Shown: one piece after another, positions 5,453 through 31,526 of the stretch
Numbering within the stretch: position 1 is the stretch's first letter
How the letters are laid out: every line of letters starts with the position of its first letter
Source of the DNA: Candidatus Nanohaloarchaea archaeon
Lineage (GTDB): Archaea > Nanohalarchaeota > Nanosalinia > Nanosalinales > Nanosalinaceae
Reading direction: 5' to 3'
Assembly (NCBI GenBank): GCA_041639695.1
Contig: JBEQBQ010000013.1
Location: forward strand, 1-32,009
Length of the DNA stretch: 32,009 nt
The notes under the pieces: generated by a model
Told to the model about the DNA's origin: nothing
Database searches by the model: none
Seen by the model: the letters and a program-made list of their open reading frames with translations, nothing else
Program-made: the position numbers and the translations under genes

Positions 5453-6295
5453 ATGAATCTTAGAGTTGGAGCCCACGTATCTATCTCGGGAGGAGTTGAA
5501 AAAGCTATCGAAAGACAGGAGGACGAGACAGGTAACTGCGGCCAAATATTTGCAGGAAGCCCTAGAACCTGGAGCGTATCAGAATATACTGAAGAGGAAG
5601 GAGAAAAATTCAGACAAGCCATGGAAGATGCTGATCAAAAACCGTACGTAATCCACTCAACCTACCTGGTTAACCTGGCAACGCCAAAGGACGACCTGTT
5701 CGAGAAATCGTTGAACTGTCTGCAGTCGGAGCTTGATGCAGCCTCCACACTCGGCGTAAAATATGTTGTCTTCCATCCTGGATCCCACACAGGTTCAGGA
5801 AGAGAAAACGGTATAGAGAGGATAGCTGAAGGAATCGATGAGCTTGATATTCCTGACAACGTAACACTTCTACTCGAAAATACCGCGGGCAAAGGCACCA
5901 CTCTTGGGAAATCTATGGGCGAGCTCAGAAAAATGATTGAAACTGCAGATACAGATTCAGGAAAGATCGGGGTTTGTATAGACACATGCCACGCACACGC
6001 CGCAGGATACAATCTGGTCTCCGATGAAGGCTTCAAAGACTTTCTACAGGAGATCGAAGAAGATCTAGGAATCGGAAAAGTTAAGGTCCTGCACCTCAAC
6101 GATTCGAAGGATGAGAGAGGTAGCGAGAAAGACAACCACGAGGATATCGGATACGGGAATATAGGCGAAGAAGGTTTCTCAAATATCGTCAACTCTGATA
6201 AACTGGAGGAGAAACCTATGGTACTGGAGACTCCAAGCGATAACCGGGCTAGTTACAAGGAGAATATTGAGAAGATAAGAGAGCTGCATAACTAA
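5453..6295 (+). CDS. nfo: Endonuclease IV (AP endonuclease)
   Basis: GAHVSI, IHSTYLVNL, FHPGS, LENTAG, CIDTCH, HLNDSK, DNHEDIG and VLETP Zn-ligand motifs. Confidence 0.95.
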   Translation: MNLRVGAHVSISGGVEKAIERQEDETGNCGQIFAGSPRTWSVSEYTEEEGEKFRQAMEDADQKPYVIHSTYLVNLATPKDDLFEKSLNCLQSELDAASTLGVKYVVFHPGSHTGSGRENGIERIAEGIDELDIPDNVTLLLENTAGKGTTLGKSMGELRKMIETADTDSGKIGVCIDTCHAHAAGYNLVSDEGFKDFLQEIEEDLGIGKVKVLHLNDSKDERGSEKDNHEDIGYGNIGEEGFSNIVNSDKLEEKPMVLETPSDNRASYKENIEKIRELHN

Positions 6296-21655: not shown

Positions 21656-22357
21656 ATGGGGGATTGGGGAGAAGAGTTCAACGCACTTCTAAACGGCGAG
21701 GAGCCGGATATCAGAAATCCGGGCGATATCTCCCTTGTTCTTGACCGAGAAAACGATTACTGGCACCCCTCACAGGTAAGAGAAGTTGATAAACAAGAGA
21801 CAATCGAAAGGGAGTATGCCACAAACATGAACAAGGCGATCGCAACAGCTTACGAGCAGCATTTTGCCGATGACTTCCAATCAGAAAAAGCTGACAGAGC
21901 TCACATGGATGTCCGGCTAACCTTTACTCCTAAAGCCCAGAACTGGCCGGTTCAGGTAAAATCATGCAACTATTTCAGGAAAGCCGGTGATCGAGTGAGA
22001 ACAGGTTCTTACAAGTTCAGGAAACAGGACTACGAGAATATGGAAGAAAAATCCTTTCTGCAGTTTTACGTCGGACAGACCTTTTTCGACAACACCAGGG
22101 ATTTTGAGGGAGAGGTTATCCGTGTGGAAAACGATGAGGGTAGAGAGGCCTACGTTGAGAAGCTGGGGCAGATGCTTGTACCTAAACATGTTTTCGACCA
22201 GTACTTCGAGCCGGACTGGAACAGGGGCGATGAGTGGAATCTTCAGTGGACGGAAGTGTTTGGCGAGGTTCCGGCGGAAAGCCCGATCTTCGAGTTCACT
22301 TTTGAGAACTATTCAGAGCTTAATGATGAACGGAATTATATATTGACCGACTTTTAG
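21656..22357 (+). CDS. PD-(D/E)xK superfamily nuclease, QxK variant (paralog A)
   Basis: AYE...HMDVRL...PVQVKS motif arrangement. Confidence 0.7.
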   Translation: MGDWGEEFNALLNGEEPDIRNPGDISLVLDRENDYWHPSQVREVDKQETIEREYATNMNKAIATAYEQHFADDFQSEKADRAHMDVRLTFTPKAQNWPVQVKSCNYFRKAGDRVRTGSYKFRKQDYENMEEKSFLQFYVGQTFFDNTRDFEGEVIRVENDEGREAYVEKLGQMLVPKHVFDQYFEPDWNRGDEWNLQWTEVFGEVPAESPIFEFTFENYSELNDERNYILTDF

Positions 22358-27147: not shown

Positions 27148-27277
27148 GGGGTCGTAGCTCAACTTGGGAGAGCGTCCGCCTCCAGAAACTTTTCTGGAGG
27201 GATGAGGCTTTCAGCCGATGATTAACCCTTTTATTGGAGACAGCGGAAGGTTGCGGGTTCAAATCCCTCCGACCCCA
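27148..27277 (+). tRNA. tRNA-Trp(CCA) with a 56-nt intron at 37/38 (27186-27241)
   Basis: Acceptor stem GGGGTCG/CGACCCC; anticodon stem TCCGC/GCGGA around CT CCA G|A; intron 3' end TTGGAGAC forms a BHB motif; one C-T mismatch in the T stem. Confidence 0.93.
27186..27241 (+). ncRNA. Intron-encoded minimal box C'/D' guide RNA for Cm34 of tRNA-Trp
   Basis: Guide TTTCTGGAGG is complementary to CCTCCAGAAA; D'-like ATGA; GGCT/AGCC hairpin; C'-like ATGATTA. Confidence 0.7.
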
Positions 27278-27320: not shown

Positions 27321-27605
27321 TTAGTTGGCGAACGCTAGTAGCGTCGAGACATACGATGCAGCGAGTACTGCCGCCAACAAGGTAAGCAGTGAGATCGCCT
27401 CAGTAAGCTCTTTCCAGTCGCCTTCAAGCATGTCCGCAATTGTCGCAGACACGAAGCTGACTGCGGCCATTACAGCGACACCGAGAAGTGTTCCTGCATA
27501 GCTTGGGTCAAGCGATAATGCGAAGGCGGAAAGTATTGTGAAACCATAGAATATTGGTTTCGCGACCTCGACCGTTTTTTCTGTCGAAATAAACTCGTCT
27601 TTCAT
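27321..27605 (-). CDS. Small three-TM membrane protein
   Basis: Three hydrophobic helices. Confidence 0.6.
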   Translation of the reverse strand: MKDEFISTEKTVEVAKPIFYGFTILSAFALSLDPSYAGTLLGVAVMAAVSFVSATIADMLEGDWKELTEAISLLTLLAAVLAASYVSTLLAFAN

Positions 27606-27652
27606 CACAACAAACTCCTATAAAACATTCAACTTGGTTAAATAAAAGTACC

Positions 27653-28606
27653 GTGATTCATGAAAAGGACGGCATCCACATAAACACGAGTGAGAAGATC
27701 GTGGCGGACGCGAGAAGTGCCAGAGGCGACATAAACTTTGTCTCGCATGCACACGCGGACCACGCCGCGAAGAAAGACGGTGAGTTCATCTGCTCCGAAC
27801 TTACACGGAAGATACTATCCGAAAGATTCGATGTAGAGATCCAAAAACAGCAAAACGATAGAATAGAGCTTATTAACTCCGGACACATCATAGGATCTAC
27901 CTCAGCCCTTATAGACCAAGAAATCCTTTACACAGGAGATTTTTCGCCGAGAGACAGGCTTTATCTAGACGGTTTCCGGCCTGTAAAAGCCGAGAAACTG
28001 GTTATGGAGACGACCTATGGAATACCGGCCTACAGGTTTCCAGACCAAGAAGAGGTAGAAAACAGAGTTAAGGACTGGATACAGGACAACACCGGTCCAT
28101 TAGTACTGTTTGGCTACTCGTTGGGTAAAGCACAGAAAGTACAGCAGATAGCACAGAAAGCTACAGACCGGGAAATTATTGCACACGGAGCCGTCAAAAA
28201 CATGAACGAAGTAATAGAGAAACATACAGAACTAGATTTCAGGGCCAAACCATACGGAAAGAACAAAGACTTACTTGAAGATGACGGGATACTGATCGCG
28301 CCTTCCAGAAGCTCGAAAGCCGACTGGATACAGAAACTTGTGGACAAATACGGTGTGAAGAAAGCCGGTTTCTCCGGATGGGCAAACACCGACTCATACA
28401 AGTATAGAGGCGGTTACGATGAAACTTTCGTTCTTTCCGACCACGCCGACTTCGATGAATTAGTGGAAACAGTCGAAAACGTTAATCCGGAAAAAGTGTA
28501 CACGCACCACGGCTTTGACGAAGAGTTCGCATCATACCTGAAGAGGGAGAAAGGTATCGATGCACGGGCTTTGAAGAACAACCAGTCAAGCCTTACAGAT
28601 TTCTAA
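27653..28606 (+). CDS. Metallo-beta-lactamase/beta-CASP nuclease
   Basis: SHAHADH, SGHIIGS, YTGDF, ETTYG, YSLGKAQ, SDHADF and HG motifs. Confidence 0.92.
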   Translation: MIHEKDGIHINTSEKIVADARSARGDINFVSHAHADHAAKKDGEFICSELTRKILSERFDVEIQKQQNDRIELINSGHIIGSTSALIDQEILYTGDFSPRDRLYLDGFRPVKAEKLVMETTYGIPAYRFPDQEEVENRVKDWIQDNTGPLVLFGYSLGKAQKVQQIAQKATDREIIAHGAVKNMNEVIEKHTELDFRAKPYGKNKDLLEDDGILIAPSRSSKADWIQKLVDKYGVKKAGFSGWANTDSYKYRGGYDETFVLSDHADFDELVETVENVNPEKVYTHHGFDEEFASYLKREKGIDARALKNNQSSLTDF

Positions 28607-28645
28607 AGCTTCACGAATATATTATTTTACGAGAAACGATAATAC

Positions 28646-29170
28646 ATGACTGAAGGTAGCTATGAAGTTAGCCCTGAAGATTTAAGGGCTCGAATAAAAG
28701 ATCCCCTAACCACATTTCCTAACTCCAAAAAGGTTTACATGGAGGCTGTTAGCTCCACACAACTTGATGATTCTGTGATGGAAGAACAATATGAATTATT
28801 CGGTATGGGGCCGGATTTAACCAGTTTTTACAAGAGAATGTGTCTTGACGAGGGCGCGGATCCAGGTAACGACTACGTAGGGAAGTCATGGGGTAGCTTG
28901 ATCCGACATAGGCAGGAAGCACTTGGAGAGGTCAGAACTGCCCTGTTAGGTTTAGCTGATCTTTCTCAGGAGATCGAAAAGGAGGCCGCCGATCTACAGA
29001 GCCCTGCGGGCTTCACCGATTCAGGGGTTCCAGGAGAACCGTCGACCCTCGAAAGCTTTTTCGAATCCTACAAGGACGAAAACGAAAGATACGCCGAAGC
29101 GGATGAAGCTCTGGAACTAACGGAACAGGAGATCAACAACTTCAACGACACACTGCGCAGACTGAGCTAG
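28646..29170 (+). CDS. Hypothetical protein
   Basis: Acidic helical ORF. Confidence 0.6.
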   Translation: MTEGSYEVSPEDLRARIKDPLTTFPNSKKVYMEAVSSTQLDDSVMEEQYELFGMGPDLTSFYKRMCLDEGADPGNDYVGKSWGSLIRHRQEALGEVRTALLGLADLSQEIEKEAADLQSPAGFTDSGVPGEPSTLESFFESYKDENERYAEADEALELTEQEINNFNDTLRRLS

Positions 29171-29172
29171 GT

Positions 29173-29331
29173 TCAGAAGGTATACAGCCGGTCCAAGGCT
29201 GCATCCACAAATTTCTCCTCTTTATCCTCAAATAGTGGTGCAGCATCCTCTACAGCCATTCTTCCCTCGGAGGTAAGCTGTTTTCCGAACTGTTTCCGAG
29301 CCGAACTTAACACATCAACCTTACCGGTCAA
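29173..29331 (-). pseudogene. Orphan 3' fragment (52 codons) of the toprim gene; diverged direct repeat of 30481-30642
   Basis: Translates as LTGKVDVLSSARKQFGKQLTSEGRMAVEDAAPLFEDKEEKFVDAALDRLYTF*; 49/52 aa identical to the C-terminus of 30481-30906. Confidence 0.92.
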
Positions 29332-29357
29332 GCCTTACAGATTTCTGACTAAACTAG

Positions 29358-30449
29358 TTATTCAACCTTCTCCTCCAGTTTTTCAATACGAGCAACCAAG
29401 TCACGCAAAATTTCGTGGTGTGCTGCGATGACAGGCCACTTTTTCGGCTGATTCGGAACCATATCTCCCACATCATAGCCGTACTTGTTAACGTATTCTT
29501 CATGAGCCCATTTTTCCGACAGAGGCTTCATGTGTACAGCATGTTCTGACCAATTGTAAAGGTGCTCCGCAATAAATCCGTGAGCGGTATTCTCGTTATC
29601 ATCTCTTGTTTCGTAGGTAACAGCCTTTACATCGAGTATTCCGTACGGTTTAGCATTAAGTTCCCGGATATTTTTCTTGAACCTTTCAGAAGAGACAGAG
29701 CCGCCAGAATAGTCGAAGAGAGTAGCGGTCTTTGCACCACCAGAACCTTCCTGTGCAGATGAAATACTTACATCGCCGTCAGCAAATCCGCTGATTTGGC
29801 CGTCATGGCCTTGAATCTTCCACTGACCACTACCTGCATCATAACCGCCATCGTAAATATGGTTGCCCTGAATTCTACGGACGGATGTAATCGGTTCATT
29901 TGACATATCAATATACGTGTTCGTAAATTCGAGAGTCCCCGGTGCCGAACTTCCCACGTAATACCGGAAAGCTGAATACGACCCGGCATCGTCATAGACA
30001 TACCACCCCAAATCACCATCATTCAAGCCGGTAGAAGTGTGCATTACAGGACGACCATTACCGTCCAAAGAATACACATCGTCTCCACTACCATTCTCAA
30101 TAGCCTGACCTGTATCCAGCCTCAAATCAGTGTTTTTGATTTCAACTGGCCCCCCTTTGTTTATCTTGAAGTAATCCGTACCTGAATCAAGAAAATCAAG
30201 ACCTGAATCATTTGAAATACCATTATTCGTAAGTTTTAATCCCGAAGCAGAAGCCAACCCCATGGCGCCAATACCAGCAGCTCCAGCCCCCAACTTCTTC
30301 AAGAAACCTCTACGTGAAATCTTATTTGAAACATGATTATCCTTATCTTCCTTTTTAAGCTGTCTTACTTCCTCTTCAAGTTCTTTCTTTTCTGTCTCCA
30401 GTTTTTCGACTTTTCTAGCCAGCTCCTCAACTTTTTCCTCCAAATCCAT
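29358..30449 (-). CDS. Tail-fibre/adhesin-like protein: N-terminal coiled coil, Tat motif, beta-rich body, C-terminal peptidase S74 (ICA) chaperone
   Basis: SRRGFLKK plus hydrophobic stretch and ASA cleavage site; SSERFKKNI...TY...GFIAE...C-terminal coiled coil. Confidence 0.8.
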   Translation of the reverse strand: MDLEEKVEELARKVEKLETEKKELEEEVRQLKKEDKDNHVSNKISRRGFLKKLGAGAAGIGAMGLASASGLKLTNNGISNDSGLDFLDSGTDYFKINKGGPVEIKNTDLRLDTGQAIENGSGDDVYSLDGNGRPVMHTSTGLNDGDLGWYVYDDAGSYSAFRYYVGSSAPGTLEFTNTYIDMSNEPITSVRRIQGNHIYDGGYDAGSGQWKIQGHDGQISGFADGDVSISSAQEGSGGAKTATLFDYSGGSVSSERFKKNIRELNAKPYGILDVKAVTYETRDDNENTAHGFIAEHLYNWSEHAVHMKPLSEKWAHEEYVNKYGYDVGDMVPNQPKKWPVIAAHHEILRDLVARIEKLEEKVE

Positions 30450-30480
30450 GAGAGTAACTGGAAAAATCGAGAACTTAAAC

Positions 30481-30906
30481 TTAATCGAATGTATAAAGCC
30501 GGTCTAAAGCAGCATCCACAAACTTCTCTTCCTTATCTTCGAATAATGGTGCTACGTCCTCTACAGCCATTCTTCCCTCTTTCGTTAACTGCTTTCCAAA
30601 TTGCTTGCGCGCAGAACTAATCACATCGACCTTTCCGGTTAAGTGTTGACGTATTTCTTTGTTCTGCTGTTTTCCGTGTGAATCAAAATCGGTTAAAATA
30701 GCTACTTTTTCACTTCCACGTTCTACATCCTCAGCTAAGTCTTCATGGGTTCTTTCAGCTGATTCAAAGATCTTTCCTTCAAAACCAAGCATTCTCATAA
30801 CTCTCTTGTCGGAGAAGCCTTCTACAATTATAGAGTCAACGTCTCTATCCAGTTTTTCAACCTCGTTTTCCAGACGGTTTCTTTCCTTGAACTTCTCTAC
30901 ATCCAT
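30481..30906 (-). CDS. Small toprim-domain protein (RNase M5/primase-like)
   Basis: IIVEGFSD and ILTDFDSHG motifs. Confidence 0.88.
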   Translation of the reverse strand: MDVEKFKERNRLENEVEKLDRDVDSIIVEGFSDKRVMRMLGFEGKIFESAERTHEDLAEDVERGSEKVAILTDFDSHGKQQNKEIRQHLTGKVDVISSARKQFGKQLTKEGRMAVEDVAPLFEDKEEKFVDAALDRLYTFD

Positions 30907-30941
30907 AACTGGGGTAAATTAGGAACTCGAAGTATAAATAC

Positions 30942-31526
30942 ATGGATTCAAACGACAGCATGGTCGACTACCTCGTCGAAATGGAGAAAATTACTAAGCC
31001 TGAAGTTGAAGAAGCGTTTAGAGCTGTTGACCGGAAGAAATTCGTACCTGAAAACGTGAAAGATAGGGCTTACGAGGACAGACCGTTCAGTTTAATGGAA
31101 GGCTCAACAATTTCAGCACCTCACATGGTTGCAATCGATACGGAACTACTCGAGGTTGAAGACAGTTCTAGAGTTGCGGAAGTAGGTTCAGGTTCGGGTT
31201 ACCAGCTAGCGATACTTTCCGAGTTAGTGGATGAAGTTAAGGGTGTCGAACTTCAGGAAGAACTTGTAGAATCCTCAAAGAAAAAACTATCAGAAAGAGA
31301 TAACGTGGAAGTATTTCAGGGATCAGGACTCGAGCCTCTGGAAGGCAGTTTTGACCGTATAATGTTTTCATGCGCGATAGACTCCTTCAAGCCGTTCCTC
31401 AATAGGTTGAAGGATGGAGGGATTATTGTAGCGCCGGTGAACGAGCAGATGGGTCAGAGACTGAAGAAGTGGAAGGCTGGAGATATCACAAACCATGGAA
31501 TGGTCCGTTTCACGGATTTCAGGTAA
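30942..31526 (+). CDS. pcm: Protein-L-isoaspartate O-methyltransferase
   Basis: AFRAVDRKKFVP, AYEDRP, TISAPHMV and EVGSGSGY motifs. Confidence 0.93.
   Translation: MDSNDSMVDYLVEMEKITKPEVEEAFRAVDRKKFVPENVKDRAYEDRPFSLMEGSTISAPHMVAIDTELLEVEDSSRVAEVGSGSGYQLAILSELVDEVKGVELQEELVESSKKKLSERDNVEVFQGSGLEPLEGSFDRIMFSCAIDSFKPFLNRLKDGGIIVAPVNEQMGQRLKKWKAGDITNHGMVRFTDFR

Follow-up and report, generated by a model that had tools for sequence, protein, structure and literature searches.

Homology-facilitated illegitimate recombination (HFIR) has been described in natural transformation of Acinetobacter, Streptococcus pneumoniae and Pseudomonas stutzeri and also for conjugation in Escherichia coli, in the sections of PMC3240628 that deal with it. 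As presented in those sections, one end of the incoming DNA is joined by homology and the other at a short microhomology, and foreign genes without a counterpart in the recipient are trapped beside the anchor. Here we describe a scar with the same two kinds of end in a nanohaloarchaeal metagenome-assembled genome (MAG), G000 (971 kb in 38 contigs, 89% complete, GC content 45.5%). The window that we analyzed is the whole of contig C13, 32,009 nucleotides (nt) long, and the scar lies 1.4 to 2.8 kb from the contig end. In it, a gene for a tail-fibre-like protein, predicted to be secreted, stands between two diverged copies of the 3' end of a toprim-domain gene. The scar differs from the described cases of HFIR in being a natural trace in a DPANN archaeon, known from sequence and not through a defined route of DNA entry. 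It differs further in that the foreign DNA would be the allelic locus of a relative, giving a gene-end duplication and not a simple insertion-deletion, and in that its anchor is only about 70 to 85% identical. The kind of event is known, and the scar is a new, clean archaeal example of it in the Nanohaloarchaea; a literature search found no paper linking "Nanohaloarchae" with "illegitimate recombination".

HFIR has also been proposed for effector displacement in type VI secretion systems (T6SS) and for rhs C-terminal displacement (PMC5361080, citing Jackson et al. 2009 on rhs). In the Rhs, contact-dependent inhibition (CDI) and T6SS displacement arrays, as far as the relevant part of PMC5361080 describes them, a new 3' module is added together with a downstream gene and the old end is left orphaned downstream, as at our locus. 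The displaced ends in those arrays are different toxin domains, each with its cognate gene, and their diversity is selected, whereas the two ends in the scar encode the same peptide. The gene concerned here is moreover a housekeeping toprim gene, the selected cargo, if any, would be the neighbouring gene, and there is one displacement and no array. Some integrative elements bring along, in the phage attachment site attP, a substitute for the 3' end of the tRNA or protein gene that they target. Like the scar, they leave the target intact with an element-borne 3' end, and the end that was displaced persists at the far border as a diverged direct repeat, but the scar has no integrase, spans 1.3 kb and holds the tail of a neighbouring chromosomal gene at its far border. 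The merodiploid duplications of S. pneumoniae are reportedly large and formed between repeats of one genome. In the part of PMC3784515 that concerns transformation, they resemble the scar as partial tandem duplications made during genetic exchange; the scar differs in that its two units come from diverged lineages.

Read along the plus strand, the locus begins with a gene for an MBL-fold/beta-CASP-like exonuclease of 317 amino acids (27653-28606, plus strand; Pfam RMMBL, E = 3.8e-6), which ends in the tail NQSSLTDF and scored 191.5 bits, below the cut-off of 325, against NCBIfam TIGR04122 (ligase-associated exonuclease). Then come an open reading frame (ORF) of 174 codons (28646-29170, plus strand), the orphan toprim 3' end (29173-29331, minus strand) and a second copy of the exonuclease tail (29323-29348, plus strand). 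After 9 nt follows the tail-fibre-like gene, which we call S74-like (29358-30449, minus strand), and after a further 31 nt the intact toprim gene (30481-30906, minus strand) and pcm, encoding a protein-L-isoaspartate O-methyltransferase (30942-31526, plus strand; Pfam PCMT, E = 4.6e-40). The locus can thus be written as two head-to-tail units of exonuclease tail, cargo and toprim 3' end, at 28581-29331 and 29323-30642, with an ORFan as cargo in the first unit and the tail-fibre-like gene in the second.

The intact toprim gene encodes 141 amino acids and matches Pfam Toprim (E = 1.4e-3) and NCBIfam PRK04017-type models, in each case below the cut-off. The orphan corresponds to its codons 89 to 140 plus a TGA stop, so that its product would be the C-terminal third of the toprim protein. 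The original prediction, made from the sequence alone, had reported that 29173-29331 and 30481-30642 encode the same peptide, and our recount gave identical figures: 49 of 52 residues and 124 of 156 bases agree (32 differ), with 25 codons identical, 24 differing synonymously and 3 nonsynonymously. The proportion of differing synonymous sites (pS) was 0.75, at which such sites are saturated, and that of nonsynonymous sites (pN) was 0.049 (Nei-Gojobori proportions). Since the differences are almost all synonymous, the two copies diverged under purifying selection in separate lineages and do not represent a local duplication that decayed, as the prediction had argued. At the DNA level, a repeat search paired 29176-29332 with 30487-30643 (157 nt, 80% identity), and self-blastn stretched the match to 29176-29346 against 30487-30658 (172 nt, 78.5%, one gap). 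The longest identical run within the 80% repeat is 23 nt; a core site could look like this, but so could any well-conserved piece of coding sequence, here GRMAVED. Within the genome the orphan matches the toprim protein with an E value of 1.7e-26, which excludes a chance origin of the likeness.

The orphan reading frame has no stop over its 52 codons. It starts at a TTG, the codon for Leu-89 of toprim, two codons downstream of an in-frame TAA, and lies 26 nt past the stop codon of the S74-like gene on the same strand. Judged from this arrangement, the orphan is most simply an untranslated remnant, possibly inside the 3' untranslated region of the S74-like gene. We searched 70 genomes of the order for toprim; 53 had a match, the gene was single-copy in 52 of these, and a second match was found only in G000. 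A permissive scan of 37 further locus files from 32 relatives detected no short toprim copy. Among the relatives searched, the scar is unique.

A bridge across the locus came from run X1, a hypersaline-lake metagenome that was the only run to contain the stretch, that is the probable source run of the MAG and that we examined as Logan contigs. A single Logan contig, 3569 nt long at a depth of 7.67, aligns without a gap to 27600-30923, differing from it at 9 letters, and so crosses every junction, against the concern that the locus might be a chimera of two strains. The copies of the toprim end share at most 23 identical nt and those of the exonuclease tail at most 20, below usual assembly k-mers, which argues that the arrangement is not an assembly join. 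Two other X1 joints, 28604 to 30661 and 29291 to 30749, both in contigs of relatives, had been considered as insert-free or looped-out forms of the locus. We rejected them, as these contigs have about 80% likeness; the second joint is also out of register with the repeat, skipping 1457 nt and not 1311. Runs X2 and X3 of the same study held next to none of the words of the stretch, and the short pieces that did appear, below 90% likeness, are uninformative either way.

To ask which copy is foreign, we compared both with the toprim gene of G002, the only usable relative of the same genus; in the second genome of that genus, G001 (77% complete), no part of the exonuclease-toprim locus was found. 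An alignment of the orphan, the intact 3' end and G002 comprised 144 nt, of which 99 were invariant. G002 sided with the orphan at 19 sites but with the intact end at 4 (binomial p = 0.0026); the two local copies grouped together at 15 sites, and all three differed at 7. At each of the three amino-acid differences between the copies the orphan had the residue of G002 (L, S and A). Its divergence from G002 was 18%, and its private substitutions were confined to the 4 sites at which the intact end sided with G002, all of them synonymous. Along the intact gene, differences from G002 per 10 codons ran 0, 4, 1, 6, 3, 4, 6, 6 and then 12, 7, 14, 7, 7, 13, which amounts to 30/240 nt (12.5%) over codons 1 to 80 and 60/180 (33%) over codons 81 to 140 (Fisher p = 3e-7). 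Codons 81 to 88 already differed at 10 of 24 nt (p = 8.6e-4 against codons 1 to 80), so that the beginning of the foreign tract seems to lie some 8 codons upstream of where the orphan is cut off.

On this comparison, the orphan is probably the resident allele, as the prediction had proposed in calling it a displaced resident end. The 3' part of the intact gene (codons 81 to 141, 30481-30666, minus strand), at whose upstream end the divergence from G002 steps up, is probably an imported allele, and the same alignments suggest that the imported tract takes in the S74-like gene and the toprim 3' end as far as about codon 81. That the intact 3' end and the S74-like gene came in, and not the other cargo, is the direction we favour clearly but without certainty. 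The absence of a stop in 52 codons and the small number of private substitutions in the orphan indicate that the lineages involved had split long before the event took place, in line with the recent date first suggested for it.

The prediction had also stated that only the S74-like gene lies between the two toprim ends, and here it needs correcting. The last 8 codons and TAA stop of the exonuclease gene (28581-28606, plus strand) recur at 29323-29348 on the same strand, with 2 mismatches in 26 nt and a longest identical run of 20 nt; none of 100 shuffles of the window gave as many as two matches. The second copy ends in an in-frame TGA in place of TAA, and since a stop was kept, it was presumably once a functional gene end. 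It abuts the inner end of the orphan, and the two overlap by the 6 nt ACCGGT (29323-29328): the sequence is that of the orphan as far as ACCGGT and that of the exonuclease tail beyond. Counted by eye, about 15 of 24 positions agree fortuitously between the region of toprim codons 89 and 90 and the exonuclease tail, in a patch around ACCGGT. The presence in the insert of an exonuclease tail with its own stop places the illegitimate joint at ACCGGT and shows that what came in was a relative's allelic chromosomal locus rather than a mobile element.

These features can be accommodated in a single event. In the ancestor, the exonuclease (plus strand) and toprim (minus strand) genes would have been convergent, with the ORFan between them, and the donor would have been a related nanohaloarchaeon with the tail-fibre-like gene in the gap of the same locus. 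At the right border, homologous recombination inside toprim would have crossed over near codon 80. At the left border, the donor strand would have reached no further than the last 8 codons of the exonuclease gene it carried and been joined illegitimately to the resident toprim gene at codons 89 and 90 through the microhomology ACCGGT. The donor segment, consisting of the exonuclease tail, the surface-protein gene and toprim codons 81 to 141, would thereby have been added and not exchanged. With a toprim end present on the donor fragment itself, the outcome would have been a duplication of the resident end and not its replacement, leaving toprim intact with a foreign 3' end and a near-identical peptide and stranding the resident 52-codon end downstream. 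The marks of HFIR can be recognized in this anatomy: an anchor-side donor tract in toprim codons 81 to 141, seen against a noisy background divergence; a nonhomologous joint at a few-base microhomology; and DNA from another lineage, as pS and pN and the 19:4 ratio of sites indicate, although the donor itself was not found. Homology-facilitated recombination had been put forward beside integration at an att site, and homology-anchored exchange on one side fits the anatomy well. The prediction had seen no integrase, and a Pfam scan of the 39 ORFs in the window likewise found no integrase, transposase or recombinase family; the only tRNAs in the window, at 950-1021 and 27148-27277, lie away from the junctions. 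We regard it as highly probable that a foreign allele of the same locus was joined by a homologous event on one side and an illegitimate one on the other, whichever the direction and whether or not two steps were needed. The specific version, in which a relative's allelic locus entered by a crossover in toprim and a joint at ACCGGT, we hold to be somewhat better than an even bet. The sequence data establish the two repeats, the joint, the synonymous divergence, the lack of the insert in relatives and the bridging by another assembly, whereas the direction, the single step and the manner of DNA entry are inferences.

Several observations weigh against this account. Synonymous sites between G000 and G002 are near saturation (pS 0.41 to 1.03 per 50-codon block and about 0.72 to 0.77 over whole genes), and the divergence step in toprim is within the noise of neighbouring genes, with codons 1 to 50 of pcm, for example, at a pS of 0.99. 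The direction therefore rests mainly on the 19:4 ratio over 144 nt, and since the orphan and the intact copy also share 15 sites against G002, the three sequences do not sort cleanly. As the bridging contig was assembled from what is probably the source run of the MAG, it represents a second assembler and not second data, and the evidence from X1 consists of contigs and not raw reads. A donor with the order exonuclease, S74-like gene, toprim was not found in Joint Genome Institute (JGI) metagenome contigs, in which searches with the S74-like and toprim proteins gave no confirmed relative, or in 49 other genomes of the family; nor was one found in IMG/VR with the same two proteins or in phage records by tblastn. 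Finally, the anatomy is symmetric, and a mirror event would give an identical map.

In that mirror event, the order exonuclease, S74-like gene, toprim would have been resident, and a 3' part of the exonuclease gene, the ORFan and a toprim end to codon 89 would have been imported. The homologous anchor would lie in the exonuclease gene, and the same joint at ACCGGT, which serves both versions, would have displaced the resident tail at 29323-29348. This would place the displaced 26-nt tail close to where homology ends, a likely position for a joint of this kind, and the last 300 nt or so of the exonuclease gene are indeed slightly closer to G002 (80 to 84%) than the remainder (71 to 80%). Against this, pS shows no step along the exonuclease gene (0.56 to 0.85 per block), and a wholly native toprim gene would have to jump from 12.5% divergence to 33% at codon 81 while the supposedly foreign orphan stood at 18%. 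We consider the mirror event unlikely. Improbable in our judgment is a two-step history, in which a tandem duplication at a microhomology, from 8 codons before the end of the exonuclease gene to toprim codon 89, was followed by allelic replacement of one unit with other cargo. Head-to-tail units with a microhomology joint are the exact trace of a tandem duplication, and partial duplications during DNA uptake are reported for S. pneumoniae (PMC3784515, in the part noted above). Such a history would nevertheless invoke a pair of rare events when a single one is enough; tandem duplications tend not to be stable, a later replacement of the second unit would have had just 26 nt of homology on its left side, and no feature of the sequence calls for an intermediate.

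Integrative elements classically leave foreign DNA flanked by direct repeats of a gene's 3' end, and gene-end direct repeats do bracket the foreign DNA here. The scar might accordingly be read as the remnant of a virus or plasmid that targeted the toprim 3' end site-specifically, supplied a replacement for it from its attachment site and has since lost its integrase; the 23-nt identical run could be its core site, and the S74-like protein resembles phage tail fibres. Such an element would, however, be 1.3 kb long with a single gene, amid 39 ORFs that hold no integrase or other mobile-element family, and its far end would carry the tail and stop of a neighbouring chromosomal gene, which is unexpected in a mobile element. 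The N-terminal module of the S74-like protein also recurs at 28 other loci of G000, and no relative turned up in IMG/VR or phage records, so that we give this explanation very little credence. We give equally little to the idea that the assembly fused two strains from the same sample, of which one had the ORFan in its gap and the other the S74-like gene. It is true that the sample is rich in relatives, with depths of tens to hundreds for the conserved flanking genes against 7.67 for the bridging contig, and that the locus is close to a contig end. Yet a second assembler's contig crosses all junctions without a gap, the repeat copies have only their short identical runs (at most 23 and 20 nt) in common, and the joint between orphan and tail shares only 6 to 9 nt with either parent, too short for a k-mer graph to invent. 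Moreover, neither cargo gene was covered by any other X1 contig at a likeness of at least 80%. A homologous crossover in toprim with an illegitimate joint at ACCGGT remains the reading that we prefer.

We looked at the loci of 32 relatives to determine whether the arrangement is conserved, a comparison that the prediction had proposed. The exonuclease and toprim genes were convergent in 29 of the 32. In G002 their stop codons are 13 nt apart, while 1874 nt separate them in G000. The gap between the aligned gene ends was 35 nt or less in 10 genomes, 81 nt in 1, 365 to 424 nt in 10, 537 to 682 nt in 4 and 1447 to 1963 nt in 4; the exonuclease gene was not adjacent in the remaining 3. Its occupants included a pterin-4a-carbinolamine dehydratase gene (1 genome by Pfam, 7 more by eye), an HD-domain gene (1 by Pfam, 4 more by eye), a nucleotidyltransferase/HepT pair and several unknown ORFs. 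In one genome of another genus (G018, locus L039), a nucleotidyltransferase/HepT-like toxin-antitoxin pair and an HD-domain gene lie together in the gap. Neither cargo gene of G000 was detected in any of the 32 loci by tblastn at 1e-4. Some of this variation seems to stem from the differential loss of two long-standing residents, and some seems to be lineage-specific. The gap is shown to be variable, but not to be a "hot spot".

The toprim 3' end had been suggested as an exchange site for variable surface-protein cassettes. One half of this idea stands, in that the gap does hold different genes in different relatives. The other half does not: none of the gap occupants in relatives is a surface-protein paralog, no other orphan toprim end was seen, and none of 27 other loci in G000 with paralogs of the S74-like protein was bracketed by repeats of at least 18 nt (one 14-residue fragment left out; random controls gave 0 to 6 per set). 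A genome-wide self-blastn for a similar footprint returned tandem paralogs and tRNA-like repeats only.

The exonuclease tail peptide, NQ[SAT]SL[TS][DE]F, is conserved across the exonucleases of the relatives. In G000, ends of the form L[TSD][DE]F occur in 3 of 1120 long ORFs, against 0.24 expected; they lie at 28583-28606 and 22334-22357 of the window and near 5588 on the minus strand of contig C24, and 2 of the 3 read QxxLxDF before the stop. This type of tail resembles a C-terminal PCNA-interacting (PIP-like) motif, for which it is at most a candidate. In genome G021, a gene in the exonuclease-toprim gap (L059:7849-8598, minus strand) ends in NQSLTDF and so mimics the tail of the adjacent exonuclease; a protein identical over 95% of its product is recorded as a hypothetical protein of Candidatus Nanohalobium constans. 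We had suspected a second scar here but withdrew it, given that a homolog with 73% identity ends in VTSLDDF and that ends of this form are enriched in G000. The tail of the G021 gene might go back to an ancient fusion or might be a motif that both genes share, and for tails of the NQSLTDF type a short functional C-terminal motif is more likely than a recombination scar.

The first cargo gene encodes an acidic protein of 174 amino acids, and its stop lies 2 nt from that of the orphan. It matched only itself among 5.8 billion clustered proteins in a word-indexed search and among 1.84 billion representatives in a full HMMER pass. The gene is single-copy in the genome, and its codon adaptation index (CAI) was 0.72 in frame as against 0.63 and 0.58 out of frame. 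Codon usage did not separate the resident from the foreign parts of the locus.

The second cargo gene encodes a predicted secreted protein of 363 amino acids that has a coiled coil at the N terminus, a twin-arginine signal, a body resembling tail fibres and, at the C terminus, a putative S74-like chaperone segment. Its match to Pfam Peptidase_S74 (PF13884) over residues 253 to 298 is below threshold (20.5 bits against a cut-off of 22, E = 6.1e-4), and it matched PHROG tail-fibre families at 5.8e-9 and 3.5e-7. The twin-arginine model TIGR01409 scored 19.8 bits against a cut-off of 16.7 over residues 44 to 63 (ISRRGFLKKLGAGAAGIGA), with no single stretch above the cut-off when taken alone. The sole homolog, of 542 amino acids with 40 to 46% identity, has the same architecture and a precomputed PF13884 hit. 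An AlphaFold2 model of the S74-like protein built from a two-sequence alignment had a mean predicted local distance difference test (pLDDT) score of 36, too low for a fold search, and a sequence search of the PDB with the S74-like protein gave nothing below an E value of 0.78. The C-terminal 263 residues had matches at or below 1e-5 in 4 of the 49 other genomes of the family, the best with 52% identity over about 83 residues, and no ortholog-level match in any of them. As the N-terminal module is common to 28 other loci of G000, the protein belongs to a cellular family and is not obviously viral.

This family comprises about 29 small secreted proteins in G000, with an N-terminal coiled coil, a twin-arginine signal (..SRRxFLKKxGAGAxGxGA..GLKLT.NG) and unrelated C-terminal domains. 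Its loci include C9:13927-14742, C9:19413-20198, C12:18520-19455 and C2:38076-46420, and several are clustered on contigs C2 and C9. The family could be a variable surface repertoire for host contact.

By eye, an AT-rich, TATA-like stretch (ATATATTATTTT) lies about 20 to 30 nt upstream of the ORFan start, in the region 28607-28645. A TATA-like TTTAAG was likewise seen by eye about 20 to 30 nt upstream of the S74-like start, inside or just after the toprim 3' end (30450-30520). Should this stretch be genuine, the imported gene would have its promoter within the imported toprim end. Elsewhere in the window, a tRNA match that spans 130 nt (27148-27277, plus strand; Rfam, 50.1 bits), uncalled by ARAGORN and 91 to 96% identical to G002, is probably an intron-containing archaeal tRNA.

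Nanohaloarchaea live as episymbionts and have genomes of some 1 Mb; how they gain genes is little understood. It is conceivable, but in our estimation a long shot, that the exonuclease-toprim gap is a preferred exchange point for whole gap alleles, with the duplicated ends as homology handles for loop-out or transfer. If so, the surface-protein gene would be lost, with toprim unharmed, whenever 29173-29331 recombined with 30481-30642, and these tiny symbionts would possess a recombinase-free cassette system for surface proteins. As a single event of a known kind, the scar establishes no new principle; its use is that of a worked example and of a marker in studies of populations. It is direct, base-resolved evidence that DNA from a lineage whose divergence had reached synonymous saturation recombined into the chromosome. 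By this event, the gene for a predicted secreted tail-fibre-like protein, of a kind that could mediate host contact, would have been added through a homologous and a microhomology joint without mobile-element machinery.

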